Origin: an uncultured Planctomycetota bacterium
GTDB lineage: Bacteria; Planctomycetota; Planctomycetia; Isosphaerales; Isosphaeraceae
Direction of reading: 5' to 3'
Assembly: GCA_963823665.1 (NCBI GenBank)
Contig: CAWGMQ010000003.1
Location: 1,792,001 to 1,856,000 of the forward strand
Length of the DNA stretch: 64,000 nt
In this document: in pieces, positions 596 to 60,293 of the stretch
Numbering within the stretch: position 1 is the first letter of the stretch
How the letters are laid out: each line of letters begins with the position of its first letter
Program-made: the position numbers and the translations under genes
The notes under the pieces: generated by a model
The model's input: the letters and a program-made list of their open reading frames with translations, nothing else
What the model was told of the DNA's origin: nothing
The model's database searches: none

Positions 596-608
596 CGGCT
601 ATGCGGAT
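593..608. promoter_or_regulatory. Putative ArsR operator, site 1
   Basis: ATTCGG-ctat-GCGGAT imperfect palindrome overlapping the -10 box and arsR start; the motif recurs at 988-1003 and 5421-5436. Confidence 0.7.
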
Positions 609-963
609 GAGCAATCAGACTGCTGAACCCCTGGATCTTTCAATTGAGCTCTTCAAGGCGTTTGCCGACCCGGTGCGGTTGCGGCTTCTGAACCTGCTGG
701 CGGACGACGAAGTGTGCGTCTGCCATCTGCACGCAGCTCTGGACCTGCCGCAATCCACCGTTTCCCGGCATCTGGCGTACCTCAGGAAAAGGGGGCTGGT
801 CCTCGGTCGTAAGGATGGGCTGTGGGTGCATTATCGCCTGGCGAAACCAGCGGGTGAGTTGCACCGGCATTTGATGGAGTGCCTGAGCGTATGCTCGAAG
901 GAGCTCGAACTCTTGAAGTTCGACCGGCAAAGGCTGGATCACGGCTCTTGTTGTGGCGACTGA
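601..963 (+). CDS. arsR: ArsR/SmtB-family arsenite-responsive repressor
   Basis: FKAFADPVRLRLL...EVCVCHL...QSTVSRHLAYLRKRGLV winged HTH with CVC site and C-terminal CC; lies upstream of arsM/acr3. Start may be 607. Confidence 0.92.
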   Translation: MRMSNQTAEPLDLSIELFKAFADPVRLRLLNLLADDEVCVCHLHAALDLPQSTVSRHLAYLRKRGLVLGRKDGLWVHYRLAKPAGELHRHLMECLSVCSKELELLKFDRQRLDHGSCCGD

Positions 964-987
964 CGCGAAGTTTTTTTGGCCAATTAT

Positions 988-1003
988 ATCCGTATTGACG
1001 GAT
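988..1003. promoter_or_regulatory. Putative ArsR operator, site 2
   Basis: Perfect palindrome ATCCGT-attg-ACGGAT between the arsR stop and arsM start. Confidence 0.7.
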
Positions 1004-1024
1004 GCATCAGAGAGGAAATACGCG

Positions 1025-1798
1025 ATGGAGGGTACTCAGATCAAGGCGGCGGTCAAGGAGCAGTATGGGAAGGTCGCCAAAGGCGAAGCGACGTGCGGCT
1101 CACTCTGCGGCTGCACCGAAAACGCGGAAGGGTTGGCGATTACATTCGGCTATTCCGCGGCCGAGCTGGCGACGCTACCCGAGGGCGCGAATCTTGGCCT
1201 TTCCTGCGGCAATCCGCAGTCAGTGGCAGCGATGCAGCCCGGGGAAACTGTGCTCGACCTCGGCAGCGGGGCTGGGTTCGATTGTTTCCTGGCTGCCCGA
1301 CAGGTTGGACAGTCGGGCCGGGTGATCGGCGTGGACATGACCGACGCCATGCTGGAAAAAGCCCGTGCCAATGCCGAGAAATCCGGCCTGGCCAATGTCG
1401 AATTCCGCAAGGGCGACATCGAGGCCCTGCCGGTCGATGACCATTCCGTCGATGTGACGATCAGCAACTGCGTGCTGAATCTCGTGCCGGACAAGGATCG
1501 GGCATTCCGCGAGATTCACCGGGTTCTGAAGCCCGGCGGGCGGCTGGCGGTTTCGGACATGGCGTGGGAGGCCGAGCCTCCGGCGGCCTTGCGACGGGAC
1601 ATGGAGGCAATGGTCGGCTGCATCGGCGGAGCACTGGTCGTGGATGATTACGTGGCCCGGCTCAAGCGGGCGGGTTTTAGCCGCGTCGAGGTTGAGAGGC
1701 ACACGGAAGCGGTTCGCAAGATGGTCGAAGTTTCAGGAGTGGCGCCGCCGCCTGGCATCGAGAATCTGCTGAGCGTCAACATCACGGCCACCAAATGA
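1025..1798 (+). CDS. arsM: Arsenite S-adenosylmethionine methyltransferase
   Basis: GLSCGNP, VLDLGSGAGFDCF SAM motif, ISNCVLNL and VGCIGGA conserved cysteines; GAGAGGA RBS before ATG 1025. Confidence 0.93.
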   Translation: MEGTQIKAAVKEQYGKVAKGEATCGSLCGCTENAEGLAITFGYSAAELATLPEGANLGLSCGNPQSVAAMQPGETVLDLGSGAGFDCFLAARQVGQSGRVIGVDMTDAMLEKARANAEKSGLANVEFRKGDIEALPVDDHSVDVTISNCVLNLVPDKDRAFREIHRVLKPGGRLAVSDMAWEAEPPAALRRDMEAMVGCIGGALVVDDYVARLKRAGFSRVEVERHTEAVRKMVEVSGVAPPPGIENLLSVNITATK

Positions 1799-1917
1799 AA
1801 CAGCCAAGTACGCCGAACGGCGTGACGACATCGGGCGGCTCCTGCTGTCGGTGATGATGCAGGCCCGCCAACGTATCGCGGCCGTGAGTCCGCCGACGGA
1901 AAGGAAACGCTGACGGC

Positions 1918-3030
1918 ATGGACGGAGTTTCGCCTAAACGCCTCGCCTGCCTCGACCGCTATCTGACGGTATGGATCTTTCTCGCCATGCTGGCCGGGAT
2001 CGGGCTGGGTTATTTCTGCCCTTCCGTCGCGCGCGCCGTCACGGGGCTGTCGGTCGGCACCACGTCGATTCCAATTGCGGCCGGGCTGATCCTGATGATG
2101 TATCCGCCGCTGGCCAAAGTGAAGTATGAAGAGCTGGGCGGAGTGTTCCGCAACACGCGGATACTGGCGCTTTCGCTCGTCCAGAATTGGCTGATCGGGC
2201 CGTTGCTGATGTTCGGGCTGGCTCTGGCGTTCCTCGCCGACCGGCCCGAATACGCCATCGGCCTCATCATGATCGGCCTGGCGCGTTGCATTGCGATGGT
2301 GATCGTCTGGAACGAGCTGGCGAAAGGGGATACCGAGTACGCCGCCGGGCTGGTGGCGTTCAACTCGGTTTTTCAGGTGCTGTTTTACCCGGTTTATGCC
2401 TATGTCTTTATCAAGCTTCTCCCGCCGCTCTTCGGTGTTCAGTTCGGCAATGTCGACCTGTCGCGGATCACGGTGAGTGCGATCGGCGAAAGCGTGATGA
2501 TCTACCTGGGGATTCCTTTCCTTGCCGGGATGGTGACGCGGTTCACGCTGTTGCGGGCCAGAGGCCGGGACTGGTATGAAAAGCGGTTCATCCCCCGAAT
2601 CAGTCCGCTCACGCTGATCGCGTTGCTGTTCACGATCGTCGTGATGTTTTCGCTCAAGGGCGGCTTCATCCTGAGCAATCCGCTCGATGTCGTCCGGATC
2701 GCGGTGCCCTTGCTCTTGTACTTCGTAGCGATGTTCATCGTTTCGTTCTTCATGGGCTGGCGGCTGGGAGCCAATTACGCGAAAACGGCGACGCTCGCGT
2801 TCACAGCGGCGAGCAACAACTTCGAGCTGGCGATTGCCGTGGCGGTCGCTGTGTTCGGCATCGACTCGGGGGCGGCCTTCGCGGCTGTGATAGGCCCGCT
2901 GGTCGAAGTGCCGGTGATGATCGGGCTCGTGAGCGTCGCCCTGCTCGTCCAAAGACAATACTTCAAAGCTCCTGCGAACAACGTTGATGTTGTGCACACT
3001 GAAGAAAATGCGGAGCCGTCTCTGCGTTAA
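1918..3030 (+). CDS. acr3: ACR3-family arsenite efflux transporter
   Basis: [41 protein letters not shown] and GPLVEVPV signature motifs; multiple hydrophobic helices. Confidence 0.96.
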
Positions 3031-3047
3031 CTCGACGGAATGCACAC

Positions 3048-3386
3048 ATGGGGAACGTAAAACATTGGTTGATCGTAAACACAAGCGGTAACGTATATGA
3101 AGATTCGGCGAACTTGCGCCGGGCGGCGTTTACGCTGAGCGCGATGTCGAACCCCATCCGCCTTGGGATTCTCCTGCGGCTCTCGCGCGGCGAACGGCAG
3201 ATTATGGAGTTAGTTACCGACCTGGGCCTTCAATCGACGACGCTTTCAGGCCATCTTTCTCTGCTGCGAAAGGCTGGCCTCGTAACGAGCGGGCATGTCG
3301 GCAGGCGCGCCTGCTATGCTCTCACTGAAATGGGCCAGGAAACGGCCAGACGACTTGCTATGTCGACATCGATCCGAATGGGTTGA
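3048..3386 (+). CDS. ArsR-type winged-helix protein lacking the CVC motif
   Basis: SNPIRLGILLRL...TLSGHLSLLRKAGLV...YALTEMG. Confidence 0.75.
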   Translation: MGNVKHWLIVNTSGNVYEDSANLRRAAFTLSAMSNPIRLGILLRLSRGERQIMELVTDLGLQSTTLSGHLSLLRKAGLVTSGHVGRRACYALTEMGQETARRLAMSTSIRMG

Positions 3387-4318: not shown

Positions 4319-4678
4319 TCAGCTACAGGATGCCAGGGCATCGAGCCGCTCGTGGTCTCGCTGGAGTTCCTCGACGTCCGAAAGGCACGACTCGATGCAG
4401 AAAATAAGATGCCTATGAAGATTTGATTTCGGCTTGGCTAACCGGTAGTAGGCCCACCGCCCCTCCTTTCTCGCAACGACCCATCCGCTGATTTTCAGAA
4501 ATGCGAGGTGGCGGGAGACCGTTGGTTGAGGCAGGTCCAGGGCCTCGTGCAGATGGCACACACAGACCTCTCGCCCATCCGCCAGGAGGGCCAACAGGCG
4601 TAGCCTCACCGGTTCGGCAAAAGCCTTAAACAGTCCCATTGCATCGGTCAGGGGCAGGAGTCTCGAGACCTTTGTCAT
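4319..4678 (-). CDS. arsR: Second ArsR/SmtB-family repressor (paralog of 601..963)
   Basis: FKAFAEPVRLRLL...EVCVCHLHEALDLPQPTVSRHLAFL, closely matching 601..963. Confidence 0.88.
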   Translation of the reverse strand: MTKVSRLLPLTDAMGLFKAFAEPVRLRLLALLADGREVCVCHLHEALDLPQPTVSRHLAFLKISGWVVARKEGRWAYYRLAKPKSNLHRHLIFCIESCLSDVEELQRDHERLDALASCS

Positions 4679-5111
4679 TGGGACGGCGCTTGAAGTCGAT
4701 CTCTTCTTGGCTGGATTGCTCTGGTTCCGGGTGCCTTACTTTATTCATTTCCGATGTCTCCGACAATGCCCCTCTCCAGTGGAATGGACCAAAGGTTTGA
4801 CTGATGAACCGAACCGTCTTGAAGCCGATGTCGGTCAAGTCGTAGCAGTTCTCAAACCGCTTGCCACCACTTCTCACCAGCCCCCCGCGCCGCAACGGGT
4901 CAAGCATCTTCGCCGCGTCGGGCGTGGTGCATCCGAGGTCTCTAGCAAGCTCGTCAACGGTTTGCTCGCCATCCGCGAGGCGAAGGATAATCTTTAGCCG
5001 GCCAGGGTTTGAGGCGAGTCTGAGCGCCATCGCTCCTTCCCGGACCCTGGCAAGAGACCGCGTATCAAGTCTTCGGGTCGGCTTCGCAACTCTGCGCCTG
5101 ATACGGGCCAT
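4626..5111 (-). CDS. ArsR-type winged-helix protein lacking CVC (paralog of 3048..3386)
   Basis: SNPGRLKIILRLADGEQTVDELARDLG...LRRGGLV...CYDLTDIG. Confidence 0.72.
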   Translation of the reverse strand: MARIRRRVAKPTRRLDTRSLARVREGAMALRLASNPGRLKIILRLADGEQTVDELARDLGCTTPDAAKMLDPLRRGGLVRSGGKRFENCYDLTDIGFKTVRFISQTFGPFHWRGALSETSEMNKVRHPEPEQSSQEEIDFKRRPNDKGLETPAPDRCNGTV

Positions 5112-5436: not shown

Positions 5437-5590
5437 ATACGATCCCGAAGGGAGGTAAACAAGTCCGAACCGATTCCTCCCGACAGGACCGGCCAAAGGT
5501 GACGAATTTTCGCCGTGGCGTTAGACCGGCTCGTGGAGCGCTCGGATCCGATCGAAATTCGAGCGAGATCCCGATGTGGAGCGCATGCGC

Positions 5591-6427
5591 ATGAGCACCG
5601 TCTCGACGTCCCGGCCTTCGAAACGCCCGCCTGACGACTCTGATCCAGTTCGCTACGGCTGGAGGTACGTGACCGCGTGTGGGCCGGACGGAAAGCCCAC
5701 GATTGACCAGATTCCGCTGACTCTGGAGGATGTACTGTTTCCGGAGTTGGACGATTTCATCGTCAACAGGGTCCTGCACAATGATGACGCAATGTATCTG
5801 AAGTGCGTCTTCAAGACGAGGCTCGAACGCAATCCCGAATCGGCGGTATTAAGCCGCTGTCGGGTGGATTGGAACCTGCTGGGTGTCCGCCCCCTTGCTC
5901 CGGATATCGCGGTATTCTCCGGCGTGAAGCGACGCAAGAACTGGGCGACATTCGACGTCGCGGCTGAGCGGGCGCAGCCGGCTTTGGTTGTGGAGGTGGC
6001 GTCGGTGCACACGCACACGAACGACGTCGATATCAAACCCGATTACTATTATCGCGCAGGTGTGCCGCTCTACGTGATCGCGGACGTTCTCGAAGAGTCA
6101 GATGAGGCTCGACGGTTGGAGTTGATGGGCTATCGACTCACCTCAGAGGGTTATCAGCGGGTTGCGCCAGATACACACGGGCGGATCTGGCTCGGTCCTC
6201 TGGACCTCTGGCTCGGGATTGTTCAACATCCGAGTCTGGACGGCCGCGAGCGTCTGGCCTGTTTCGACGGAAAGACGGGGGACGAGATCGGCGGCTACGA
6301 CGCGGTTACGGCCAGAGCCCAAACCGAGGCCGCTGCACGCCAGAAAGCCGAGGCCGAGACTCTGCAAGCCGAATCACGCGCGCGTGAGTTGGAAGAGGCA
6401 CTCCGGCGGCTTGGCCAGGGCTCTTGA
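5591..6427 (+). CDS. Uma2-family (restriction-endonuclease-like) protein with coiled-coil tail
   Basis: PDIAVF...PALVVEVAS...DVDIKPDYYYRAGVPLYVIAD motif order; alanine/glutamate-rich C-terminal tail. Confidence 0.88.
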   Translation: MSTVSTSRPSKRPPDDSDPVRYGWRYVTACGPDGKPTIDQIPLTLEDVLFPELDDFIVNRVLHNDDAMYLKCVFKTRLERNPESAVLSRCRVDWNLLGVRPLAPDIAVFSGVKRRKNWATFDVAAERAQPALVVEVASVHTHTNDVDIKPDYYYRAGVPLYVIADVLEESDEARRLELMGYRLTSEGYQRVAPDTHGRIWLGPLDLWLGIVQHPSLDGRERLACFDGKTGDEIGGYDAVTARAQTEAAARQKAEAETLQAESRARELEEALRRLGQGS

Positions 6428-6856: not shown

Positions 6857-8470
6857 CTACAAAGGCTTGAAAAGCTCGTCCGGCATTGGAACGCCGAATT
6901 CGAGGTGGTATTTCCAAACCTGCTCGGTGTCGAAGTTTGACGTCTTGCGCCGCACCTGGGTCGGGTACCAGAAGCCGCTCGGCGATTGCAGTAGATTTTC
7001 CATGAGCATGGTGTCGACATACGCGATTTTGGGCGGGTTTTGCGATTCGAACACGCTCGCCTCCGTGCGCAGAGACATGTATCCCTTCGCTGGGTCGATC
7101 CAGAGCTTCCAGAAGTCGGGGTGAGCTGGATCGGTGGATCGCGTGTCGTGCACGCGCAGGCGGATCGTGTTGGCCGGACCGTCGGCTGGCCTGGCATCCA
7201 GAATGAACTCACGTTCCGGAGTCGGCGGCCACACCGTCGGGTGACTCAAGTGCTCGACAAAGAGATGCGGCCAGGGCATGAACGGGTCGTCGGACGGGTT
7301 GATCGCGTGCGTCATCGATAGCGTGAGTTTTGGGGGGGGTTCGTTCGCATCGCGATTGAAGAGATTGCCTTCTGGCTTGTAATAATAGACTTTTTCACCG
7401 TCACATACGGCCTGGAGCGAAACGGGATAATCGGCCTGGTGGGCCTTCCACCAGGTGGCATCTGCATCCGCCGGGAATGCCGGCCACTCTTTTCCGGAAA
7501 TGAGCAACGTCTCCGCGCGCCACTTCCGGCCTTTGCGCCAAACGCGCTTGATGTTCGTGCCATCGCCCATGTCCATGATGGCGCGGTAGTCGTCGAATCG
7601 GACACGGCCGATTTTCAGGCCCGCGCCGATGCGCTCGAGATCGTCGGCCGGCACGCGATCGACAATTTTCGCGGCTCGCGGCGCTCCGAGCTCATAGAGA
7701 TCGGCTGGACCGCGCTCGGGGTAATCGAAGAGCGTCGTGCCCTGTGGCCCTTCCTTCGACTGGAACACCATCGAATGCGGGAGCTTCGTTTTGGGGTCAA
7801 CGCGGATCCGAATCCGTTGCTCGCGATCAGCGCCGACGACGCGAAGCGTCAGCTCCAGGTCAACCCACGCCCGACCGTTTTCCACGACATCTTGCCGGCT
7901 CTGAGCGACCACATCCGTTCCCGGGAACGGTGATTTCGTCGGAGCCTTGGAATCAAGGAGCTGACTGAAAAAATCCAGCATCTGCACCGTGTGGTCCGGG
8001 CTTTCAGGCAGGCGGTAAATGACTCCTTCGTCGCGCAGATACTTCATGACGATACGCAGGCCGCGGTCGTGGTACTCAATCTCAGTTCCATGGCGGCCCG
8101 CGGTCACACCAAGCTTAGGGCTGAACCAGACTTCGCTTGCTTCCTTGCCGTCCGGGCCAACCGTCCGCGTGTGCACCCAGGGCTTTCCCTGCAGCGCCTG
8201 GGCGACCTCGGGCCACGCGTTCGCAGGCCGTGAAATCATGAGGAGAAGCGCCGCCGCCACCAGAGCGGCCGCTACCCCGGATCCGAACACCAGCGGCCTC
8301 GTCCAAAGCGCGACGCGCCGGATGGGTGGCAAGCGACTGAGGAAGAGGGTGCGAAGCTCCGAGACGTGCTCGCCGCGAGGCTCCACAGCCGGATCGCCGG
8401 CCTCGGCGATCATGCGTCCCATCATTTGCTCACCAAGGTCGTCAGACCCTGCGGGCGTCGTTTGGCTCAT
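6857..8470 (-). CDS. Putative anti-sigma factor: single TM helix plus large extracytoplasmic domain
   Basis: Overlaps the ECF gene end; short cytoplasmic N-terminus, TM segment GVAAALVAAALLLMI, then AWPEVAQAL...WVH and a beta-rich LolA-like region. Confidence 0.65.
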   Translation of the reverse strand: MSQTTPAGSDDLGEQMMGRMIAEAGDPAVEPRGEHVSELRTLFLSRLPPIRRVALWTRPLVFGSGVAAALVAAALLLMISRPANAWPEVAQALQGKPWVHTRTVGPDGKEASEVWFSPKLGVTAGRHGTEIEYHDRGLRIVMKYLRDEGVIYRLPESPDHTVQMLDFFSQLLDSKAPTKSPFPGTDVVAQSRQDVVENGRAWVDLELTLRVVGADREQRIRIRVDPKTKLPHSMVFQSKEGPQGTTLFDYPERGPADLYELGAPRAAKIVDRVPADDLERIGAGLKIGRVRFDDYRAIMDMGDGTNIKRVWRKGRKWRAETLLISGKEWPAFPADADATWWKAHQADYPVSLQAVCDGEKVYYYKPEGNLFNRDANEPPPKLTLSMTHAINPSDDPFMPWPHLFVEHLSHPTVWPPTPEREFILDARPADGPANTIRLRVHDTRSTDPAHPDFWKLWIDPAKGYMSLRTEASVFESQNPPKIAYVDTMLMENLLQSPSGFWYPTQVRRKTSNFDTEQVWKYHLEFGVPMPDELFKPL

Positions 8471-9029
8471 GGCGCTCACCTCCGACCTCAGTCGAAAAAT
8501 AGGGTTCGAGGAGATTCCGAAGCTCGGACCGCGCACGTGATAACAGCGACTCCACGGCTTTCGCGGATCGTCCTATCTGACTGGCGATCTCGGCGACACT
8601 GTTCCCGGCAACGTATTTGTCCAGGAGCACCCGGCGGTGGTCTTCCGGCAGCCGTAGAAGGGCCACCCGCACCAGGTCGGCGCGTTCGACTTCTTCCAGG
8701 AGGTCGGGCGGCAACAATGAGCCTGCGGGTGCGTCGAGATACTCATCGGCTCCGCCCGTGGCCGTGCGGCGGTGACGCCTCAATGCCCGGTGACGGCCGA
8801 TGCCCAGAATCCAGTCGCGGAACTTGCCGCGTGCAGGGTCAAACCGGTCGAACTGCTCGATCGCCAGCAGCCAGACCTCCTGGTTCACGTCCTCGGCCAG
8901 ACCGCGATCTCCGCCGAGCAGGTGATAAACCACGGCGAAGACGTCCCGGACGTGGCGATCGTACATTCGCGCCCACGCCGATCGGTCGCCCTTCGCCATC
9001 GCACGGATCAGGCGGAATTCGTCGTCCAT
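8442..9029 (-). CDS. ECF sigma factor
   Basis: Region 2 LAEDVNQEVWL...FRDWILGIGRH; region 4 SVAEIASQIGRSAKAVESLLSRAR. Confidence 0.92.
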   Translation of the reverse strand: MDDEFRLIRAMAKGDRSAWARMYDRHVRDVFAVVYHLLGGDRGLAEDVNQEVWLLAIEQFDRFDPARGKFRDWILGIGRHRALRRHRRTATGGADEYLDAPAGSLLPPDLLEEVERADLVRVALLRLPEDHRRVLLDKYVAGNSVAEIASQIGRSAKAVESLLSRARSELRNLLEPYFSTEVGGERHEPNDARRV

Positions 9030-9180
9030 CGTCTGACGGCCTCGTTATTGTGTTCGCCTTCACATACAGTATTGCCATACGAAGGCGAAATCCTTCGCGG
9101 AGTCCTGCTCGAAACCACATGGAACCTTTCGACGTCCTTGTATCGATTACTTTCTCCAGCTCCTCCCGTGAGTTCGTCCT

Positions 9181-11214
9181 ATGTTCGAACGATTCACCGA
9201 CCGCGCCCGCAAGGTGATGGAACTGGCCGACCAGGAGGCCCTACGCTTCAATCACGATCACCTCGGCACCGAACACATCCTGCTCGGCCTGGTCAAGGAG
9301 GGCACGGGCATCGGGGCCAACGTCTTGAAGAACCTGAACGTGGACCTGCGGAATATCCGCGACGAGGTCGAGAAGATCGTGCCAGCCGGGCGGGAAAAAG
9401 TCACGATGGGAAAACTGCCTCTTCGTCCCGCGGCAAAGAAAGGCATCGAAGCGGCAATCGCGGAAGCTCGCGGCCTGACCCACAACTACGTCGGGACCGA
9501 ACACCTGCTGCTCGGCTTGCTGCGTGAGCAGGACAGTGTCGCCGCCCAGGTGCTCACAAGCCTGAACTTGAAGCCCGAAGAAATGCGCAGGCAGGTCCTC
9601 AACTTGATGGGCCACGGAATGGATATCGGCGAAGGGAATCCCGACGCATGGAAAACCGGCCGCCGCAAGACACCCGCCCTGGACTCCTTCGGCACGGATC
9701 TGACGGAAAAGGCCCGTCAGGGCAAGCTCGACCCTGTCATCGGCCGCCAGAATGAGATTGACATGGTGGTCCAGGTGCTCTCGCGCCGGAGCCGGAACAA
9801 CCCCGTTTTGATCGGTGAGGCGGGAGTCGGCAAGACCGCAATTGTCCATGGCCTGGCCCAGTTGATCGTCGACGGCCGAGTTCCCGATCCATTGCACAAC
9901 CGCCGCGTGATCCTCCTCGATTGGGGCCTTTTGAACAGTGGCATCAAGCAGACCGGCCAGCTCGAGGAGCGGATCAAGGCCGTTTCGTTTGAAGTGCGCC
10001 GAGTGAAGGACGTCATCCTCTACCTCGACGATCTGCGCGGTTGCGCGCGATGATGATGCCGATGCCGGGCCCTCGAACCCGCTCGAGGTTGCGCTCACTC
10101 GCGGTGAATTCCAGCTCATCGTGGAAACGACACCCGAACAGTACAGTCGCTGTGCCGAGAATGCGCGTATTTTCGAACGGTGCTTTCAATCCGTGATGAT
10201 CGGCGCACGAACAAGAGCGAAACGTTCGATATCCTGCGCACGCTGCGCGACCGGTACGAGGCTCACCACCGAGCCCGGATCACGGACGACGCTCTCGCGG
10301 CGGCCGTCGAGCTGAGCTCGCTCTATCTACCGGACGAGCACTTTCCGCTCAAGGCCATCGAGCTGATCGACCAGGCCGGCGCTCGCGTCCGGCTTGATGC
10401 AACGATTCTTCCGCCTGACGTGAAAGAACTCGACGACCAGATCGAACGGCTCGATCAGCAAAAGGAAGAGGCGGTCGCCAATCAGGACTTCGAGCGGGCA
10501 GCCTCGTTGTACCGCCAGGCCGACGCGCTCAAGAAGAATAAGGCGACGATCGACCACGATTGGCACAAACGGTCAAGTGAGATCGACGGCACAGTCGACG
10601 CACAGGTGGTTGAAGAAGTCTTGAGCCGTGTAGTTGGGGTGCCGCTCGAGGTCGTTCAGAAGCGTGACGTTTCGACGGTCCTTCACAGCGCGAGGTTTCT
10701 CCGCGCGGGACCGACCAAGTTTGAGCGGCTTCTGGCCGATTGGATTTTGCGGGGCGAAGGCGTCAAGATCCAGCAGAGCACGGGTTTCGTGTTGTTGCCT
10801 CAACACGAGGCATTCGACCGTCTTTTCGAGAATGTGATCCGGCCTGCGATGATCGCCAACGGCATCATCGCCAAGAAGGCCGACAACATTGACGAGCGCG
10901 GCTCGACGCTTGCCCAGGTCTGGGCCCAGATCCGCTCGGCCGAGGTGATCGTGGCCGACGTCTCGTCCCTGAGCCCCACCAGTGAGGTCAGTTCAAACGC
11001 CAACGTGATTTTTGAGGTCGGCCTCTGCTTGGGCCTCCACCGCTGCCCGATCCTGCTGGGACGCAACCCGGCAATGCTCCCGTTCAACCTTCGGAGCCTT
11101 CCCTACATCCTTTACGAAGATTCCATCGACGGTGCGGCGAATCTCAAGGCCGACCTGACGAGGGCAATCGAGGAGTTCCTCTCCGCGTCGCGCGGGAGTC
11201 GGGCGGAAACTTGA
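9181..11214 (+). CDS. ClpC-derived protein (Clp-N, AAA+ D1, UVR coil) fused to a nucleoside-deoxyribosyltransferase/TIR-like C-terminal domain; two compensating frameshifts
   Basis: MFERFTDRARKVM and two TEHxLLGL repeats; Walker A GEAGVGKT; ALTRGEFQLI in the frame of 10121; LRDRYEAHH; KEEAVANQDFERAASL; C-terminal FVLLP...KADNI...VIVADVS...NANVIFEVG...LPFNLR. Indels near 10045 and 10210. Confidence 0.82.
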
Positions 11215-11270: not shown

Positions 11271-13080
11271 TCAGTGCCCGACAACCTCGAGTCTTGCTTG
11301 CACGATCGCCTGATCGGGTTGCCGGCAGGAGAACGCGTCACATGCCTGGAAACGGACTGTGCAGGAGGTAACGGCCGACCCTGAACGAGCGTCGCCGGCG
11401 ACTCGAAGGCGGCGGCGGAACTCGAACGAGCCGTCGTAGGTGAGACGGCCTTCCGAAGCGGGCGCCGGATCGGGCACGGTCCAGTCGCCGAGAGCCTCGA
11501 AGCCCTCCGGAGGCTTCAATTCGAGGCTCGTGGCGACTTCAGGGCCGCTCGAGCCCTTCACGGCGGTGATATGCCATCCCGGGGCTGTGGCGACGCGGAT
11601 GACGAGCGTGACGACCTCGCCGGCGCGAGCTCGACTGGGCGCGAACTCGGCCTGAGCAGCGACAGGATTGCGATGCGTCGGCTCGAGCGCGCTGAGCGGT
11701 GTCCGAGGGAGCCGCGGTGGAGCAGTGAGTCCCTTCGGAGCAACCCGGAACCCGTAACCACCGACTTCATCAAAGAACAGCCGGTCGCGGTTGCCGTCGA
11801 GCCATTTGCGCCACGACGTCGCGTCGTCGTACGATTCGCTCGTGTAACGCTTCAGAACGCGAAGTGCGACCTCTGCCTGTTCCTTCCGTTCCAGCAGCTT
11901 GACCCAAGCGTCCAAGGATTCCGCCTTTCGGTTCGACTGGCCCAGCGCCTTCGCGTCCTCGTCGATGGCGATCTCCGTAAGGTCCGAGGCCGCGGCTCCC
12001 GGGCGAAGCCACTCGTAGTTGTCCAGGACCCAGGCGATGTACTTCTCCGCGTCGGTTCCGCACTGCTTTCGAACGCCTTCCGAAAAGAAGCGGTCGACCA
12101 GCCTGAGCGAGCCTTGGTAAAGCCTTTTTGCCCGGACAGGATCTTTTGCCACGGACTCCGGCAGCGAGTGTACGAAGGCGTCCTCGTCGAAAACGACCCT
12201 CAGGTTTTGGGCGACCATCGAGCGCCCATTCACGCGTGAATTCCTGGTCGGTTTTGCGAACGATCGGCCGCTGGCGATCGAACTTCTTGATGTAGCAGAC
12301 GACGTTGACGAAACACTTACGTGCCTCTGGCGTCATGTCACGCGGGGACGCCGAGAAGCCCCAAAGGAAGAAGTTGCCCTGGCGCCCCAGCGCGACGGAA
12401 CCGGGCGTCTTCGTGTTGATGCCCGACGCGACGACCTCCGCGTCAGGAGACGCGTCGAAATCCCAGGGGCTGGAAACCAATCCCCAATCGACTTCCGGAT
12501 GATCCTTTGTCTGAACCCGCCAGACCTTGATGGACTTGCCGATCGGCCGGCCGGATGCCAGGCCCGGATATTGAGGCGGAGTGGGCTGGTCTTCGAGCGA
12601 CAGCTTCACGGGGAACGGCGAGCAGAAGACCTCGTGCCCCGAGGCGATCCCGTGGGCAAACGCGCCCAGGCAGATGCAGCAGGAATCAATCTTGAGGCGG
12701 AGATTCCGGATTGCCATCTGCCCCCCCGCGCCGATCAAGACTGTCGGCCGATCGTACGACTCGGAAACCTTCGCCCCCTTGGGCCCTCGCAAGCCTCTGA
12801 TCGGTTCGACGATCTTGCCGTTCGAATCGCGCGGGAAAACCGTATCCCAGTCGAAGATGACGACGTCGTGTCCGTCGGCTTTTTCGTCGGTGAACGACAC
12901 GAGCGGAACGCGGTCGACCTTGCGGAAAGTCTGCTCGAGAAACCCGGTGAAATCCTTCTCGCGCTCGGTGCCCGATGGACCAGCGTAGAGGATCGACAGC
13001 GGAATCGGGTCGTCGGCTCGTAGCGACGGTGAGAAGGCAAGCAGGGAGAGCAACCCGAGTGTTCGGAGCTCGCTTCGCAT
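11271..13080 (-). CDS. Exported hypothetical protein with C-terminal DsbD-N-like domain (frameshift near 12222)
   Basis: Signal peptide MRSELRTLGLLSLLAFSPSLRA; CCICL motif; ORFs 11770..13119 and 11271..12233 join; C-terminal APGWHI...FQACDAFSC. Confidence 0.7.
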
Positions 13081-13339
13081 GGTCGGACTCCTGTTCTCAT
13101 TCAAGGCGACGGGGCGCACGCCTGTCGATTGCTGGGGCGACCGGGATTATATTCGATGAGCCACTTGAACGCGAATGGGAGGTTCCGTTCGAGGTAAAAA
13201 CGGTTGACGTCACTTCCCGCCAGGGCGAAAGTATTGTTTTGCGGAGGCTTTGATCCTTCGGGTCGCATTCCGGTGCGGCGTAGAACAAGCTCCCGAGTTG
13301 AAAACAGCGAGCTTAATTGTGAACGATGACTTGCACGCG

Positions 13340-16415: not shown

Positions 16416-19400
16416 ATGAGTAGTCCGGCGCTCGTCGAGTCGATTTTCTTTGCGGCGCTCGAAAAGAAAACGGCCGCGGAGCGGGCGGATTATCTGGACG
16501 AAGCCTGCGGCGCCGACGCGGCGCTTCGCCTCAAGGTGGAACGGTTGCTGGACGCTCATCCCCTGGCGCAGCAATACCTGGCTCAGCCCGCCGTCGATCG
16601 TCAGGCCTTCGACCCAGGCGATTCGGCTCGGGGCTCGACGAGTCTTGCGTCCACGAGCGGCCCGGAATCAGTTTCGCAGGGTCCGGGCGCGGATGGCGAC
16701 CGGTTCGGGACGCTCGCCGACCTTCCGGTCGATGGTGGTGCGGCCCCATCCGCGGTCGACGCCACTGTCGAACAAACTTGCCATGCGTCCGAGCCGATTG
16801 AGCGAACCAGCGGCAACGGAGCCAACCGCGACCTGCCGCGCGGCGCCGCCGGCGCCGGCGAATACGAGACTCAAAAGGAACTTGGTCGCGGCGATATGGG
16901 AGTTGTCGACCTGGCCGGTCACGTCATCAAGAACTGGCCCTGCGGCGGCCAGCACGGCGAACCTTCCCGGGTTGGGCGCTATCGGATCATCCATCGGCTG
17001 GGCCACGGCGGGTTCGGTACGGTTTATCTTGCACACGACGATGAGCTGGATCGGCCGGTGGCCGTCAAGGTGCCGAACCCGGAACGAATCACTGGCGCGC
17101 TGGATGTCGAGGCGTTCCTTGAGGAAGCCCGAACGCTTGCCAAACTCGACCATCCCAACATTGTGCCGGTATTCGATGTGGGCCGCACGGAAGACGGGCT
17201 CTGCTTCGTGGTCTCGAAGCTCGTCGAAGGCAGCGATCTCGCGGTCAGAATGGGACAGGGTCGACCTTCGTTCCGAGATTCTGCGCACCTTGTTGCCACC
17301 ATCGCCGACGCCCTACACTACGCCCACACCCGCGGGCTGGTTCATCGGGACATCAAGCCCGCGAACATCCTTATCGACGCCGCAGGCAAAACGTGCGTGG
17401 CGGATTTCGGTCTCGCCCTCAAGGATGAAGACTTCGGCAAGGGTGGCGGGCTAGCGGGCACACCGGCCTACATGAGTCCCGAACAGGCCAGGGGCGAAGG
17501 CCACCGGGTGGATGGCCGATCCGATGTCTTCAGCCTGGGAGTCGTCTTCTACGAACTGCTCACCGGAAAGAAGCCATTCCGAGGTGATTCTCTCCTGGAC
17601 TTGATCGAGTCGATCCAGACCGCTGAGCCACGTCCGCCTCGTCAGCGGGATGATACGATTCCCAGGGAGCTGGAACGGATCTGCCTCCAGGCACTCTTGA
17701 AGCGAGCGTCGGAGCGGTACAGCACCGCGAAGGACATGGCGGAAGACCTTCGCGCGTTCCTAGAAGCCACGAGTGGCACGGTCTCGCCTCTCGCCCCCGC
17801 GGCTTCCGAGGCTCGACCCGGATCCACCCTCGAAGCCGGCTCACCCCCGACGACCTTGCGGCAATCCGACTCCGACCGAAGACCAATCAAGATCGTTCCG
17901 AAGGGTCTGCGGTCCTTCGACGAGCATGATGCCGACTTCTTCCTGGAATTGCTTCCAGGTCCTTGTGATCGGGACCGACTGCCCGAGAGCATCCGTTTCT
18001 GGAAGCGAAGAATCGAGCAGCTCGACCCCGACCTGACTTTCAAGGTGGGGCTGATCTACGGCCCCTCGGGCTGCGGCAAGTCATCGCTCGTCAAGGCAGG
18101 ACTTCTGCCCCGGCTCGGCAATCACGTTCTTCCGGTATACATCGAGGCCACGCCGGACGAGAACCGAAGCTCGGCTGAAGAAGGGTTTGCGCAAGGTTTG
18201 TCCGGATATGCCCGCTGACTTGGGGTTGGTCGATTCGCTGGCAAATCTGCGGAGGGGCCGGGTCTTGCCAGCAGAGCGCAAGGTGCTGCTGGTCCTCGAT
18301 CAATTCGAACAGTGGCTCCATGGCAACAGGAGCGCTCTGAATTCCCAGCTGGTCGCCGCCCTTCGTCACTGCGATGGTGAGCATCTTCAAGCAGTTGTGC
18401 TGGTGCGGGACGATTTTTGGCTTGCCGCCAGCCGCTTCATGCGTGAACTGGAGATCCGATTGGTCGAGGGCGAGAATAGCGCCCTGGTGGATCTCTTCGA
18501 TCCCCGTCATGCCAGGAAAGTGCTCATGGCTTTCGGACGGGCCTATGGGGCGTTGCCCGAAAACGCGCGTGATCAGAGCGGCGATCAAGAAGCTTTTCTG
18601 GATCAATCGATTTCCGGCCTCGCCCAGGACGGGAAGATCATCTCGGTGCGGCTAGCTCTCTTCGCCGAGATGCTCAAAGGGAAGCCCTGGACCGCGGCGA
18701 AGCTGCGTGAGGTGGGCGGCACCGAGGGGATCGGTGTGACTTTCCTGGAAGAAACCTTTAGCGCCGCGACCGCACCGCCCGAGCACCGCCTGCACCAGAA
18801 AGCCGCTCGCGCGGTCTTGAAAGCTTTGCTACCCGAGGGCGGCACCGACATCAAGGGGCAGATGCGATCGCGCCAGCAGTTGCTTGAAGCTTCAGGGTAC
18901 GTAAACCGCCCCCGCGACTTCGACGACCTGATTCACATCCTCGACATGGCACTTCGACTGATCACGCCGACCGACCCGGAAGGTTCCTCGCGTGAAGGTC
19001 AGAAGGCCGCGGCGAGTGGGCAGTATTATCAGCTCACACACGATTACCTGGTCCAGTCTCTGCAAGACTGGCTCACCCGCAAGCAGCGCGAGACCCGCCG
19101 AGGAAGGGCGGAGTTGTTGCTGGCGGAACGTTCATTCCAGTGGAACTCGAGAACCCGAGAACCGCCATCTGCCGTCTGCCCTCGAATGGGCGCGTCTTCG
19201 ACTGCTGACCAGCAGTCGGGGCCGGACGGAGCTAGAGCGCAGAATGCTGAAGCACGCCGGGCGAGTGCACGGTTCGCGGTTGCTCTTATCAATCCTGCTG
19301 ATCGCCTTGACCACATGGGGAGCGATCGAGGGCTATGGCACGCTGCGGGCTTCGGCCCTGGTGGACTCGCTCCGGGCAGCCGGCACCACCGACGTCCCGG

Positions 19401-21429
19401 CGGTCATCGAGCAGCTAACCGTGTACCGGCGGTGGGCCGACCGTCGGCTCCTGCGGATGCTCCGCGATTCGGACGAGTCGAGCCGCGACCGCCTGCACGC
19501 CAGCCTCGCCCTGCTGCCGGTCGATCCCTCTCAGGCCGATTACCTTGGGAAGCGGCTGCTCGGTATCGCACCGGCCGAGCTGCCGGTGCTACGCGAGGCC
19601 CTGGCGCCGTATCGAAACCGCCTGACCCCGACGCTCTGGGCCGAGCTGAAAAAGGCCAGGCCGGACGATCCGGCGCTTCTGGCCTCCGCGGCAGCCCTGG
19701 CGCTCTATGACCCCGACGCCCCCCGCTGGTCCGAGCTTGGCGCCAAAGTCGCCGAGGCGCTCGTCCAGGTCAATCCCATCTTGCTCGGTCACTGGCTCGA
19801 TGCGCTGCGCCCCGTGCGGGTCCGGCTCGCCGGGCCGCTCGAGCGGATCTTTCTCAGCGGAGGCGCCGGGGCCAAGCACGAGCTGGCCACCAGCATCCTC
19901 GCCGATTACGCGGCCGACGACCCGGACCGTCTCGCGGGCCTGCTCGTGGCCGCCGACCCGAAGGCATACGTCGTGCTCTTCCCGGTTGCCGAGCGCCGCG
20001 CCGCGCAGGTGCTCCCCCACTTCAAGGCCGAGCTGGAGAAGAGGGCGAAGTCCCAGGGGCCGGCTTTGACCGAGCCGGCCAAGGATGAGCTGGCCGAGCG
20101 GCAGGCGCGCGCAGCCGTGTCCCTGGTCCGGCTTGGTCATTCCCGCGATGTCTGGCCGCTCTTGCGTTACAGCGCCGATCCCCAGCTTCGCAGCTACATC
20201 GTCAACTGGCTGAATCCCTTGGGTGCCGATCCGAAGCAGATCCTCGCCGAGCTTGACCGTCTCGCCAGCGTGGGGCGCAGCGCAGCCACGAGCGTGGAGC
20301 GCGGGGCTCCGGTCCCCGACCGGAAAGTAATCACCAATGCAATGGCGGAAATCCTTTTCCAGCCCGAGACCTCGATACGGCGGGCGCTCATCCTTGCCCT
20401 GGTGCTTACGGGACCGAAGCCCTTTCTCCCGGCGAGCGCGAGGCCATGGTCGCCCGGCTCCTCGAGCTATTTGAGCACGACCCGGATGCCGGTATTCATG
20501 GCGCATCGGCCTGGGCTCTGCGGAAGTGGAATCAACACCGGAAGCTCAGAGCGCTCACCGCGAGCTTGAGCGGCAAGGATCGCGGCGACCGCCACTGGTA
20601 CGTCAATAGCCAGGGACAGTCGCTCGCCATCGTCGACGGTCCGCTGGAGTTCCGCATGGGCTCACCGCCCGATGAGCCGGCACGGCACGATACCGAGCCT
20701 GCCCACCAGCAAGTCGTCCCACGCCGTTTCGCGGTCGCCGACACGGAGGTGACCGTCGAGCAATACCAGGTATTCGTAAAGGAGAGCCCCGGAGTCGAAC
20801 ACGTCAGGAACGACGATCGCAGCCCCGATGCGAAAGGCCCCATCAATGGACTGAACTGGTTTCATGCCGCGGCCTATTGCAACTGGCTTAGCCGCAAGGA
20901 GCACCTGCCGGAGTGCTACGAGCCGAACGAGCAGGGGCACTATGCCCTTGGGATGCGCACGAAGGCCGATGCCTTGAAATCGGGGGGATACCGCTTACCT
21001 ACCGAAGCGGAATGGGAGTATGCCGCGCGCGCCGGGGCTACGACCAGCCGGCACTTTGGTTCCACCGACCGCCTTCTCGGGCAATATGCCTGGTACCTGG
21101 GAAACAGCAAGAACCAAGCTTGGCCCGTCGGAGCCTTGCTGCCGAACGACCTGGGGCTGTTTGACATGCTGGGGAACATGTACGAATGGTGTGAGGATCC
21201 GCAGGATAGTTTGACTGGGTCCATTCCATCTACATATGACCATCAATACAAAATAACTCTTTGCCTTCGGGGCGGTTCGTTCTACGATGTAGCGGGGTTC
21301 CTCCGCTCGGCGGGTTACCGACGCGGGCCCCTCGCACCTGAGGACATCCGGTACCGCGACTTCGGGTTCCGCCCCGCCAGGACTTACCACTCAGCGCCAC
21401 TGGACTTACGACCGCACCTGGCTCTATGA
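16416..21429 (+). CDS. Ser/Thr kinase - nSTAND-type NTPase - helical region - FGE-sulfatase (C-type lectin fold) protein; three frameshifts
   Basis: GHGGFGTVY, VAVK, HRDIKPAN, DFG, YMSPE; PKGLRSFDEHDADFF and GPSGCGKSS, then VLDQFE; RLPTEAEWEYAAR, NDLGLFDMLGNMYEW, RGGSF, GFR. Single-base indels near 18162, 19153 and 20401. Confidence 0.88.
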
Positions 21430-24977: not shown

Positions 24978-25007
24978 GTGAGGGGTTCCGGGCCGTTTCG
25001 GCGCATT
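24978..25007 (+). promoter_or_regulatory. Putative ECF promoter motif A
   Basis: GTGAGGGG-16 nt-CGCATT upstream of the ATG at 25039. Confidence 0.65.
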
Positions 25008-25038
25008 GCAGGTAGGGGATGTTTGTCGGAGTCAGACC

Positions 25039-27864
25039 ATGAGCAGGTCGTCGCAAGTCGAATCCATCTTTTTCGCCGCGCTGGAAAAAAGAGCGCGGAA
25101 GAACGGGTGGCGTTCGTGAAATCGGCTTGCGAGGGCGATGCCTTGCTCCGCCGCCAGGTCCAGAGGTTGTTGAACGTCCATCCCAAGCTGGGTGATTTCC
25201 TCATGAAACCTGCCTCGGAGCAGTTGACCGAGGCGGCTACCTGGCCGGATGTTAACGACGAGCCAGGACCGCTCTATGGTCGAGCAAGCGCTGGGATGTC
25301 CACGCGAGAAAACCCCACCCTCGCGCTGAATGAAAATGACGAATCGAGCGAAGACGAGGATGGCGGGCTCGATTTCCTGGAGCCTTCGACCAGGCCGGAC
25401 TCCATCGGCCGGATCGGACATTACGAGGTTCTCGAAGTGCTCGGCAAGGGCGGGTTCGGCATCGTGTTCCGCGCGTTCGACGAAACGCTGCACCGCGTGG
25501 TCGCGATCAAGGTGCTGGCCGCGCAGATCGCCGCCACTTCCCCCGCCCGCAAGCGGTTTCTGCGCGAGGCCCGGTCGTCGGCCAAGGTCCGGCACGAGAA
25601 CGTCGTCCAGGTGTATGCGGTCGAGGAGCAACCGCTGCCCTACCTGGTGATGGAGTTCATCCCCGGCGAAACCCTCCAGCAACGGCTCGATCGGACGGGC
25701 CCTCTGGAGACGGTGGATGTGGTGCAGATCGGCCGGCAGATCGCCCTGGGCCTGGCCGCCGCCCACAACATGGGGCTGATTCACCGGGACATCAAGCCGG
25801 GAAACATCCTGATCGAGGCCGGGCCGAGCCAGCGACGTCAAGATCACCGACTTCGGACTGGCCCGGACGGTCGACGACGCCAGCATGACCCAATCCGGGT
25901 TCGTCGCCGGGACGCCGATGTTCATGGCCCCGGAACAGGCGCATGGCGACACGCTCGACCATCGGGCCGACCTGTTCAGCCTCGGCAGCGTGCTCTACAC
26001 GATGTGTTCTGGCCGGCCGCCGTTCCGGGCCAATGGCACGCTCGCAGTCCTCAAACGGGTGGCCGAGGATACGCCGCGGCCGATCCCGGAGATCATCCCC
26101 GAGGTGCCGCAGTGGCTCTGCGACATCATCACCCGGCTGCACGCCAAGAAGCCGGAAGACCGGATCGCCACGGCCAAAGAAGTGGCAGACCTGCTGGGAT
26201 ATGGCCTGGCGGTGACGGCAAGGTTCGAGGAGCGACTCGTCGTTCCCGGATGTCGCGCCGCCGGCGGTGGAGAAAAAGCCGCTGCCGCTTGAAGAACTTT
26301 CAGAAGCCGCGGCCTGGCGAGGCGATGGCCACGTTTCCGCACCAGCCGGTCTGGGCCGCCGCCGCGGCCGTCCTCGTGATGCTTTTCGGCGGCCTCGGTT
26401 TCACGGAAGCGACGCGGCGTCACCGATGTGCACGGCACAGTCATTCGCCTGTTCTCGCCGGAGGGCACGCTGGTCGTCGAAGTCGATGACCCCGGCGTCA
26501 GCGTCAAGATCGACGGGTCGGATATCGTCATCACGGGAGCGGGGGCGAAGGAAATCCGCTTGAAGCCCGGCAGCTACACGGTCGAGGCCCGCAAGGACGG
26601 CAAGCTCGTGCGCCGCGAGCTGGTCACCGTCACGCGAAACGGCCGGCAGGTCGTGCGGGTCAGCCAGGAGCCGCCGGCGCATGCCGCGAAGGTTGCCACG
26701 CGGTCAGCCGACGCGTCTGCGTGGGAAAGTGTCGTGGCCGTCCTGTCGGCAGCCGAGCAGGTGAAGGCTGTGGGAGCGCGTTTGAAGGAACTCAATCCCG
26801 ATTTTGACGGGGCCATTGTGCCCACCATCGAGTACGACGTCCTGCGGGGACTACAGTTCAACGCGGACGACGTGAGCGATATCTCGCCGGTGCGCGCGCT
26901 GACCAAGTTGAGGTCTCTCAATTGTTCGGGCAAAGGCGACCGCATCAGTCCGCTGATTGACCTCTCGCCCCTTTCCGGGTTGCCTCTGACAAGCTTGACG
27001 GTCGGCAAGGGCCAACTGGTCGACCTCTCACCGCTCAAGGGGATGCCCCTGATCCGTTTCGCGACCTATGCCACGCTGGTGGACGACCTGTCGCCGCTTG
27101 AGGGAATGAAGCTGAGGCATCTCGTCTGTGCCAACGCCGGCAGGGTGTCTGACCTTTCACCGCTCAAGAGAATGCCGCTGGAAACTCTGGACCTGAGCGG
27201 AACGAAAGTCGACGACCTGACACCCCTCACGGGCATGAAGCTGGAAAAACTGTATCTGAGCGGAACGAAAGTTGAGGAGTTGAGGGCCCTGGCCGGCATA
27301 AAGTTGGAGACGTTAGATATCTCCGGCACGAAGATCGCCAATCTCTCGCAATTGAAGGGAATGAAACTAACCACGCTCAATGTGGCTGGCACGGCGGTAT
27401 CCGACCTGTCGCCGCTCAAGGGCATGAAGCTGACATGGCTACAATGTGCCGGTACGAACGTGTCTGACCTCTCACCGCTCTCAGGGATGCCGCTGAAGGA
27501 GCTCAACTGTAGCGATTCGAAGGTGAGCGACGCGAGCCTGGCTCACTTCGCTGGGTGCAAGGACCTGATCAAGCTTTTGCTGAATGGCACGCGAGTGAGC
27601 GACGCGGGGCTAACTCACCTCAAGGACTGCAAGAAACTGAGCGTGCTCTCTCTGGTCGACACCAAGGTCTCCGGCCTGGGGCCTCTCCAGGGCATGATGC
27701 TCGACGTGATCCGCGTGACGCCGAAGAACTTGAGCGCTCGGGGCCTGGAAATCCTCCGCAACATGAAGAGCCTGAAAACGATCGGTAGCGACATTCACTA
27801 CCATGTAGCCTGGCCGCCGGCGGAGTTCTGGGCTCGCTACGAGAAGGGGGAGTTCAAGAAGTAG
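25039..27864 (+). CDS. Membrane Ser/Thr kinase with C-terminal leucine-rich repeats; several frameshifts
   Basis: MSRSSQVESIFFAALEK, then an A6-run frameshift near 25085; GKGGFGIVF, HRDIKPGN, KITDFGLAR, FMAPE; TM WAAAAAVLVMLFGGLGF; repeats of DLSPLKGMxLxxL. Confidence 0.87.
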
Positions 27865-49099: not shown

Positions 49100-49311
49100 A
49101 TCAATCTCCTCGACGACGAAACTCCGTCTCGACGATTGATCGCGCCCGGGACTCGACCGCGGGCGCACGCACGACGTCAACCATACTATCACGAGTGCGT
49201 TGAATTTCAACGAGGTTGTATCTGTTGTGGCCGGCACGCGGAGCGGCTCACGGAGTGTTGGCCGCGCCTGCATGGCAGTATAATTGGGCACGCACCGAAG
49301 GAGACACAAGC

Positions 49312-56826: not shown

Positions 56827-57508
56827 GGGCGAACCTCCTCGTCTCGTCTACTGACATTCCCGCAAACACAAAATCGTACGCTCTCGGCACGCCGGCCGTG
56901 AAAATCAGGCGAGCCACTTCGGCGGCAGGCAATGGCGCTACAGGCCGTGAGACCGAAAATCGAGCACGGGGACATAGCTTTGAAGGTCAAAAAATCCGCC
57001 GAAACAGCTTCCCGCCACCGGCGAACGTAACGACCTCGCGAACCCCGATCCCCACAAACACGACTCAACTTAGCATCATCCTACCTAAATGTCCATTGGA
57101 CATCGTATTCCATCCTGGACGCAATTCTTCCCCGCGATCGCGCCGAAAACAAGGGCCAATCCTTCGTACGAAGGAGTGAACACGCCGCCCTCAAGCGAAT
57201 GGAACGAGTAGAAGGAGCCGTTTGCCGTGCTTTCGCAGTCTTTGCATCTTTACTAGACATCCTAAGGGTCCACATTCATGCCCGTTCTGGGGGACGGTGG
57301 GTCGCGAAGATGTGATCGGGGCATGCGTTCTGAGGTGCGCTCGTCGTCCGGTGCATCCAATCCATCGCAAGCCGTGTGAAGCCGGTGGGTTGCACCCATC
57401 TTCCAAGGCTGCATGGATCCTGCCTCTGGGCTCTCGTGGCCGCGCCGAAAATCTGCTAGTGTTTTGTTTACATCAATCACGAGCCGGGCCGGTCACAGGG
57501 GGCGTTAC

Positions 57509-60260: not shown

Positions 60261-60293
60261 TTCCATTCTCGCGCCTGGGTGCAGGGGTGTCGC

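Follow-up and report, generated by a model that had tools for sequence, protein, structure and literature searches.

A ClpC-derived pseudo-ATPase fused to a nucleotide-hydrolase-like domain, and its small upstream partner, as a candidate two-gene conflict system

Results

Layout of the fusion gene

The gene clpC'-ndt occupies positions 9181–11214 on the plus strand of the window (the whole stretch of 64,000 nucleotides that was analysed, from an uncultured Planctomycetota bacterium of the family Isosphaeraceae). It joins the front half of ClpC to a nucleotide-hydrolase-like domain within a single gene, and comprises ~678 codons if both of its indels are errors. The assembly splits this fusion gene into two ORFs, 9181–10053 and 10180–11214, and an intact relative of 678 amino acids aligns to it over its full length (76%). 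Matches to Pfam consist of two Clp_N repeats (E 5e-33), a partial AAA, AAA_lid_9 (E 5e-27), and UVR.

The Clp-N double repeat (9181–9615, +) is of the Planctomycetota type and is 74% identical to that of the ClpC encoded by the same genome; the TPR motif of its second repeat has become RPA. The large subdomain of D1 (9676–10212, +) reads as a pseudo-ATPase by its motifs: Walker A is intact (9814–9837), the pore loop is without tyrosine (GIKQTG, 9940–9957), Walker B is LYLDD (10018–10032), and the arginine-finger motif is ERCF, which lies in a shifted frame. The AAA lid with an inserted UVR/M-domain coil, as assigned by Pfam, comes next (10213–10509, +; UVR at 10435–10509). These domain matches and motif positions bear out an initial annotation made from the sequence alone, which had recognised the Clp-N repeats, a D1 with intact Walker A, and the UVR coil, and had described the Walker B and ERCF motifs as deviant.

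The window fusion has no D2, and the ClpP-docking part is likewise absent, in agreement with the earlier claim that D2 had been replaced. The switch had been placed just after the linker that normally leads to D2. Instead, the new domain begins ~45 residues past VDAQVVEEV, behind a family-specific linker motif (10720–10755, +; consensus ExLQxxS[VI]LxG) whose Q and S are altered in the window copy. The effector domain itself (10783–11199, +; ~140 amino acids) is assigned to the NDT/DRHyd/TIR fold from its predicted fold and its motifs, with a predicted catalytic glutamate at 11014–11016 and a PFN loop at 11080–11088.

Upstream of the fusion is an intergenic gap (9030–9180), which in other loci is the site of a small NDT partner gene and which holds no partner in the window. 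The gap adjoins a divergent ECF sigma gene (8442–9029, −). A scan for sigma-70 promoters returned 0 sites and is uninformative.

Frame breaks and the state of the window copy

The first frame break (10036–10040, +) falls within a CG dinucleotide repeat at a position that no reads cover, and is probably an assembly error. The second (10204–10208, +) lies where a short-read contig of a relative has one more base, at 10206; this contig has 22 other differences in 373 bases. A codon-usage model also found frame switches, at 10034 and 10204. Because rpoB and mcsB of the same assembly are likewise split between frames, and because the related contig has the extra base at 10206, both indels are probably assembly errors and the window copy is probably an intact ORF. 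Of the two indels, whose repair from reads the initial annotation had proposed, the related contigs cover the second only. Another contig of the same related run spans 10342–10781, which includes the coil, the linker, and the start of the effector domain, so the junction is not chimeric. Chimeric assembly, which had been raised as a concern, is ruled out by this spanning contig, by intact homologs of 672–741 amino acids, and by the family-wide occurrence of the architecture.

The window copy has the appearance of an eroded orphan, with no upstream partner gene, no pore-loop tyrosine, and 7 of the 57 conserved positions of the effector altered. Two other family members, P0005 and P0006, depart from the consensus at 8 and 7 of these columns, respectively, and the median is 1. 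Lacking a partner and carrying these effector changes, the window copy may be a decaying or a specialised orphan. It is somewhat unlikely, in our estimation, that this particular copy is a pseudogene or decaying relic, either through real frameshifts or because it ceased to function once the partner was gone. The two frame breaks (the first covered by no related contig), the excess of changed columns over the median, and the missing partner are all consistent with such decay. Against it stand the frame splits in rpoB and mcsB, the presence of the missing base in a relative, the absence of in-frame stops from the segments alignable to intact relatives, and the retention of the catalytic glutamate.

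Frame switches are also seen in other long genes of the window, at 11271–13119 (−), 16416–21429 (+), 24978–27864 (+), 29306–34407 (−), and 57413–63255 (+). The split long genes comprise a gene with a DsbD_N-like end and Ser/Thr kinase-NTPase-FGE, kinase-LRR, kinase-WD40, and TPR genes, as would be expected if indels are frequent in the assembly.

Family members and distribution

A profile search with the C-terminal part retrieved 55 clusters at E ≤ 2e-55, the window's own included, with the next match at 1e-23. The 54 other clusters carry the window-type C-terminal domain, nearly all of them behind ClpC parts, and a precomputed AAA_lid_9 match is present in 53 of the 55. Searching 50% representatives yielded further family members. 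Among 69 classified proteins, Clp-N and D1 occur together in 33 and D1 but no Clp-N in 20; five have Clp-N joined directly to the effector, six have the lid or coil only, and five have none of these parts; a D2 module occurs in none of the 69. Some of the short members are probably fragments. The form without Clp-N at locus L009 is real, because only two bases separate its start from the end of the partner gene. The fusion of Clp-N/D1/M with an NDT/TIR-like domain, which the initial annotation had suggested looking for in other genomes, is by these sequence comparisons real and conserved across clusters.

Minimal Clp-N-NDT fusions of 265–335 amino acids were also seen, as were standalone linker-NDT versions of 155–163 amino acids in which the glutamate is lost (P0056, P0093, P0098, P0128, P0176; P0123, P0141, P0188). 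Positions 1–2450 of L017 hold two fusion genes in tandem, which are possibly several sensors for one partner; cluster 10 also has members of 682 and 741 amino acids, encoded on contigs of equal length.

Named carriers belong to the Verrucomicrobiota, Phycisphaerae, Saprospiraceae, and Ignavibacteria. No other carriers were found in 400 genomes of the class of the window host or 120 of its family (overlapping sets), nor in 400, 300, 250, and 150 genomes around four other carriers, many of these genomes being incomplete. The family is very sporadic. Viral contigs gave 18 pattern matches, none related to the family, and plasmids gave three distant matches only. Phage records contain distant, generic NDT genes (<60% identity; 29–41% among the matches listed). 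Small NDT-like genes annotated as hypothetical (H5–H13) occur in records of temperate phages of Streptococcus, Enterococcus, and Staphylococcus, at 29–33% to the partner.

A small NDT-like partner gene

Thirteen fusion loci were fetched, of which five begin inside the gene (L008, L010, L018, L019, and L023) and two are the same DNA (L011 and L021), giving eight loci with upstream sequence when the window is counted. A standalone NDT-like gene of ~128 amino acids is located directly upstream of the fusion, on the same strand, in six of the eight (L007, L009, L011, L012, L020, and L022). These partner-carrying loci span at least three phyla, and in three of them the partner overlaps the start of the fusion or ends ≤2 bases from it. 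At L017, the upstream DNA, read by hand, is the end of the second fusion copy. The neighbourhood check proposed by the initial annotation thus turned up a gene that the annotation itself had missed and that is absent from the window genome. The family appears to be a two-gene system consisting of a small NDT gene, A, and the fusion, B, with A lacking from the window genome.

Profile matches revealed no standalone partner in the window genome, which is 91.9% complete. The five NDT-like matches there are the fusion itself, three in frames of 305–326 amino acids, and one in a frame of 110 amino acids that continues an upstream domain across an apparent frameshift; none is a standalone gene of ~128 amino acids. 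Two other NDT/DRHyd-like genes of this genome are fused to uncharacterised domains (L002, G000:C4:1200283–1200633; and L003, C3:80965–81261), and the one at L002 is near a kinase gene.

The partners reach the cut-off of PF05014 in two of six cases, and the partner profile matches Rcl/DNPH1 structures weakly (E 0.003–0.02) and NDT structures also weakly. The six partners form one clade (SH-aLRT 88; quick tree, 124 columns). NCBIfam has no match to the effector domain or to the two partners scanned.

Fold and active site of the effector domain

Pfam gave no match to the window effector domain alone, a PDB sequence search with it returned nothing, and PF05014 matched 5 of 17 effector rows weakly (best E 0.023). 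An AF2 model of the effector from a relative (P0007; pLDDT 75) matches TIR domains (Z 12.2, rmsd 2.8, 131 aligned), MilB (Z 11.5, rmsd 3.3, 130 aligned), and NDTs (Z about 10), and Foldseek returned the same mix of TIR, MilB, and NDT. The model points to a TIR/NDT flavodoxin-like fold, as the initial annotation had supposed, with the Z scores for the two types being near ties (12.2 versus 11.5). In the ESM Atlas, the effector matches NDT-named clusters (0.90–0.93), which together with the motifs favours assignment to the NDT/DRHyd branch. The DRHyd subfamily is widespread, with 24,096 representatives at E ≤ 0.001.

The predicted catalytic glutamate is located in the helix after strand 3, is retained in the window copy, and aligns with the YELG motif of DNPH1 via the partner profile. 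In the fused domain, the glutamate is present in 82 of 88 rows, PFN in 76, and PFD in none, these rows including redundant cluster members and three window rows. Core members have an invariant glutamate (54/54), and a few diverged members have lost it. All six partners have both the glutamate and PFD, and PFD is present in 70 of 78 single-domain kin.

The nearest non-fusion kin are tandem-NDT proteins (47 scanned), which carry receiver, GAF, EAD7/8, death-like, CHAT, trypsin, PNP, or TIR domains. The glutamate is restricted to domain 1 and the PFD-loop aspartate to domain 2 in 32 of 54 tandems, and for tandems with one glutamate and one aspartate the arrangement is trans in 34 and cis in 2. 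As the tandems are largely one related clade, the instances of this trans pattern are not independent. A large set of proteins (P0094–P0210) combines a receiver or GAF domain and tandem NDT-NDT domains, whose catalytic motifs are split, with variable tails (EAD7, EAD8, bDLD1, CHAT, trypsin, PNP, or TIR). It resembles a nucleotide hydrolase module of conflict systems that is pseudo-heterodimeric and gated by phosphorylation.

The active site of DNPH1 is described as taking S128' from the adjacent subunit (PMC10603095), and an NDT is described as also taking residues from a neighbouring subunit (PMC12645435). By ungapped extension beyond the aligned stretch, the PFD aspartate would fall at S128 of DNPH1. 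On the simplest reading of these motifs, the active site of the fusion would be completed by the partner. The PFD loop seems to operate in trans, and as the fusion has PFN in its place, bringing fusion proteins together might not by itself yield an active enzyme. The earlier idea of an NDT/TIR effector activated by clustering accordingly stands as to its nucleotide-hydrolase fold, but the fusion by itself may not suffice.

The ClpC-derived portion

Among the 47 members with D1, Walker A (GK[TS]) is kept in 15, the DE of Walker B in eight, the two arginines in four, and all three features in one; the pore-loop YxG is kept in 35. The family D1 is, as judged from these motifs, a pseudo-ATPase. 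The window D1 is atypical, in that it retains Walker A alone of the three ATPase features and has lost the pore-loop tyrosine. The degeneracy of D1 noted in the initial annotation is therefore a family-wide property, but the lost pore loop is a trait of the window clade and the intact Walker A an exception.

The best structural matches of the full model are ClpC proteins, and the fusion scores far under the NCBIfam cut-offs for ClpA, ClpB, ClpG, and ClpK. Five other carrier hosts were tested and all encode a full clpC; the window genome also encodes an ordinary clpC and clpB. McsB is present in three of the five hosts, with no match in two Bacteroidota-group hosts, whose genomes are incomplete. 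The TEH and arginine positions of Clp-N are largely retained (20, 21, 18, and 26 of 27).

Fusion Clp-N domains are close to the ClpC of their own lineage (81% in Verrucomicrobiota; 75% in Ignavibacteria, for which cluster representative P0016 was used since the genome's own copy is cut; and 79% and 94% in Phycisphaerae), as compared with 26–54% for ClpC of other phyla. The corresponding range for D1 versus ClpC is 30–74%. The window Clp-N, at 74% to its own ClpC, is at 75–76% to Phycisphaerae ClpC. Clp-N matches the lineage of the host, not the strain.

In a tree of 28 fusion and six ClpC N-domains, the starred branches force at least five label changes, and monophyly of the fusion Clp-N domains is rejected (p-AU 0.00025; LG+G4, six ClpC references only, bootstrap not fully settled). 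For D1, a quick tree requires four or more such changes. The 34 sampled effector domains, on the other hand, form one clade (SH-aLRT 100; quick tree, 124 columns). As the effectors form one clade and the Clp-N domains do not, one effector pair acquired ClpC fronts several times.

For the Verrucomicrobiota pair of fusion and clpC, Clp-N is 81% identical despite four-fold sites at chance (13/61) and a D1 identity of 37%, and Clp-N is therefore under purifying selection. Recent gene conversion from host clpC was considered and is not supported, as identity at four-fold sites is at or near chance in the window (22/55 versus 36% expected) and in G401 (13/61 versus 22% expected). In G404 and G405 it is 50–55% versus 29–35% by chance, yet this does not exceed the value for the two hosts' own clpC pair (55%). 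The ClpC fronts were acquired by duplication or by old gene conversion, and not recently. No single putative bait surface is universal, because ~20 members have no Clp-N and five have no D1.

Genomic context

The neighbours of L011 include a relaxase, NikA, ArdC, HerA, and PADLOC candidate genes. L009 adjoins an Hhe-like helicase-nuclease and L019 a PDC-M28C-like NTPase, and L007 is located beside parE and also clpB and hsp20. The surroundings thus have a defence or mobile character at L009, L011, and L019, and weakly so at L007. No defence neighbours were found among the ORFs scanned at L012, L022, or the window, and the window fusion lies outside any defence island.

Discussion

Proposed mechanism and alternatives

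With some reserve, we favour a reading of the family as a two-gene conflict system built on a ClpC decoy and most likely directed against phages, in which A is a small NDT/DRHyd protein and B a ClpC-decoy-NDT protein. B carries the front portion of ClpC that binds adaptors and substrates (Clp-N, D1 including the pore loop, and M-domain) without the ATPase motifs, D2, or ClpP-docking part, and would serve as bait for whatever engages the host ClpC. The engaging factor could be encoded by a phage (an adaptor, or an inhibitor like SPO1 Gp53), could be a compound directed at ClpC, or could be client proteins that are tagged or unfolded. SPO1 Gp53 is described as binding the N-domain of ClpC in competition with MecA (PMC6873191). 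Binding would assemble or rearrange B as it would ClpC, with nothing threaded away. A and B would then form a heterodimeric N-glycosidase site, with the glutamate contributed by B and the PFD loop by A, and cleavage of NAD+ or another nucleotide at this site would lead to arrest or death.

A role in conflict is likely, given the patchy distribution and the kinship with proteins that have EAD, death-like, CHAT, PNP, and TIR domains. The repurposed chaperone sensor envisaged in the initial annotation is upheld in its conserved architecture, its degenerate D1, and its likely conflict role, although the two-gene nature of the system was missed. Several observations sit less well with the decoy reading. 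The window copy is without a partner in a genome that is 91.9% complete and is not in a defence island, L012 and L022 are without defence neighbours among the ORFs scanned, and the position of L007 beside clpB and hsp20 would suit a role in stress. Furthermore, because the partner holds both the glutamate and PFD, it could be an active homodimer without B.

A fuller version of the decoy reading, which we advance more cautiously, is that a single ancestral NDT pair took over the front of its current host's essential clpC gene time and again, in at least five lineage-level events, with the ATPase decaying and the bait surfaces staying matched to the host. Phage proteins or compounds that hijack ClpC would thereby cause a heterodimeric site for nucleotide cleavage to be completed, with death or arrest of the cell as the outcome.

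The full set of glutamate and PFD in A (6/6), with PFD never found in B, also suits a toxin-antitoxin or guard arrangement, which we regard as unlikely. A would be a toxin that is active as a homodimer, B would hold it inactive through its PFN-type domain, and engagement or degradation of the bait would free A. The window retains an eroded B without A, as expected of an orphan antitoxin, the glutamate is lost in a few diverged B members, and chaperone-gated release of a toxin is described for CmdTAC (PMC13276650). However, the invariance of the B glutamate across all 54 core members is a feature that a purely sequestering domain would not need, and the tandem kin show complementation, not inhibition.

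The same parts might instead sense proteotoxic stress or antibiotics and lead to dormancy or a signal nucleotide, with no phage defence, but this appears distinctly unlikely. The retention of the Clp-N TEH and arginine positions, the presence of McsB in three of five hosts, and the proximity of L007 to clpB and hsp20 are in keeping with such a sensor, and mycobacterial ClpC2 is described as a decoy of ClpC1 against cyclomarin A (PMC10030653). The extreme patchiness of the family and the mobile-element genes around L011 (relaxase, NikA, and ArdC) are more typical of defence cargo, and McsB had no match in the two Bacteroidota-group hosts with incomplete genomes. Very unlikely, finally, is the model of the initial annotation, in which B senses and acts on its own, with clustering on a hexamer switching on its NDT/TIR domains, and A is accessory: the window clade persists with an intact member of 678 amino acids (P0006), the window genome has no A, the fold is close to filament-forming TIR domains, and the conserved PFN asparagine could be a functional variant, but A precedes the fusion in six of eight loci, drawn from three phyla or more, and groups in a clade of its own, and the partner-less window copy is among the most eroded.

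Relation to known systems

The fusion resembles ClpC in its Clp-N repeats (74% to the ClpC of the window genome), D1, lid, and UVR/M-domain, and differs from it in lacking D2 and the ClpP-docking region, in its degenerate ATPase motifs, and in the added C-terminal NDT/TIR domain. Class I Hsp100 proteins need two AAA+ modules, whereas the family has D1 at most. The effector is similar to the NDT, DNPH1 (Rcl), and MilB N-glycosidases in fold (by the Z scores above for MilB and NDTs) and in glutamate position, and the family departs from NDT/DRHyd N-glycosidases in being split into an A/B pair with PFD versus PFN.

The domains carried by the nearest kin, EAD and death-like ones among them, belong to the vocabulary of the DRHyd conflict systems. 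The passages of PMC7159879 on these systems list DRHyd with vWA, VMAP, and iSTAND, and ClpN with vWA, and include no ClpC-D1-M fusion. The effector of retron-Ec86 (Eco1) is likewise described as NDT-like, kept within a complex, and responsible for NAD+ depletion once the cell is infected (PMC13276650); the sensor of this retron, in contrast, is RT-msDNA, and no RT or ncRNA was seen among the ORFs scanned in family loci. Mycobacterial ClpC2 is a partial ClpC homolog described as sensing and soaking up a ClpC-targeting compound (PMC10030653), but it acts as a sponge and a transcription factor and has neither an enzymatic effector nor a partner. Dodola (dolA-dolB) is a two-gene anti-phage system with a ClpB-like domain, for which the relevant text of PMC11514479 describes no NDT domain. 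CmdTAC is similar in that a chaperone-derived phage sensor gates a toxic enzyme (PMC13276650). It differs in having three genes and in its toxin, which is an ADP-ribosyltransferase. The chaperone of CmdTAC is SecB-like.

PADLOC 2.0, which covers Dodola, CBASS, Thoeris, and retrons, gave no cyclase, RT, or Dol match among the scanned fusion and partner proteins. Its effector model PDLC00733 (TIR) matches parts of the system, namely the window domain (E 2e-3) and the partners (1e-7 to 1e-12). No published description of a ClpC-front and NDT fusion was found in a search of mainly open-access literature. These searches agree with the earlier proposal of an undescribed system and suggest that the ClpC-decoy-NDT pair is an undescribed variant of the sensor-plus-TIR/NDT conflict systems.

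If the decoy reading is correct, bacteria guard a core proteostasis machine with a host-matched decoy that is wired to a TIR/NDT-fold enzyme. Decoy guarding of a core machine is a logic known from plant immune receptors. The decoy reading also predicts that phages of Planctomycetota, Verrucomicrobiota, and Bacteroidota encode ClpC-targeting proteins yet to be discovered, would provide a selection for finding such phage proteins, and would make DRHyd active sites of the heterodimeric kind accessible in a small two-gene model.

Other features of the window

An arsenic-resistance-like (ars) cluster is located at 601–3386 and 4319–5111. Its genes encode a methyltransferase, an SBF/Acr3-type transporter, and regulators of the ArsR type, and more ArsR-like ORFs are found nearby. 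Putative Uma2 restriction-endonuclease genes are found at 5576–6427 and 49216–49947, with a near-identical start also at 185–442. The window contains ECF sigma-kinase pairs, and the 16.5-Mb genome has at least 150 protein-kinase matches at E ≤ 1e-20 (150 scored of 542 candidates).
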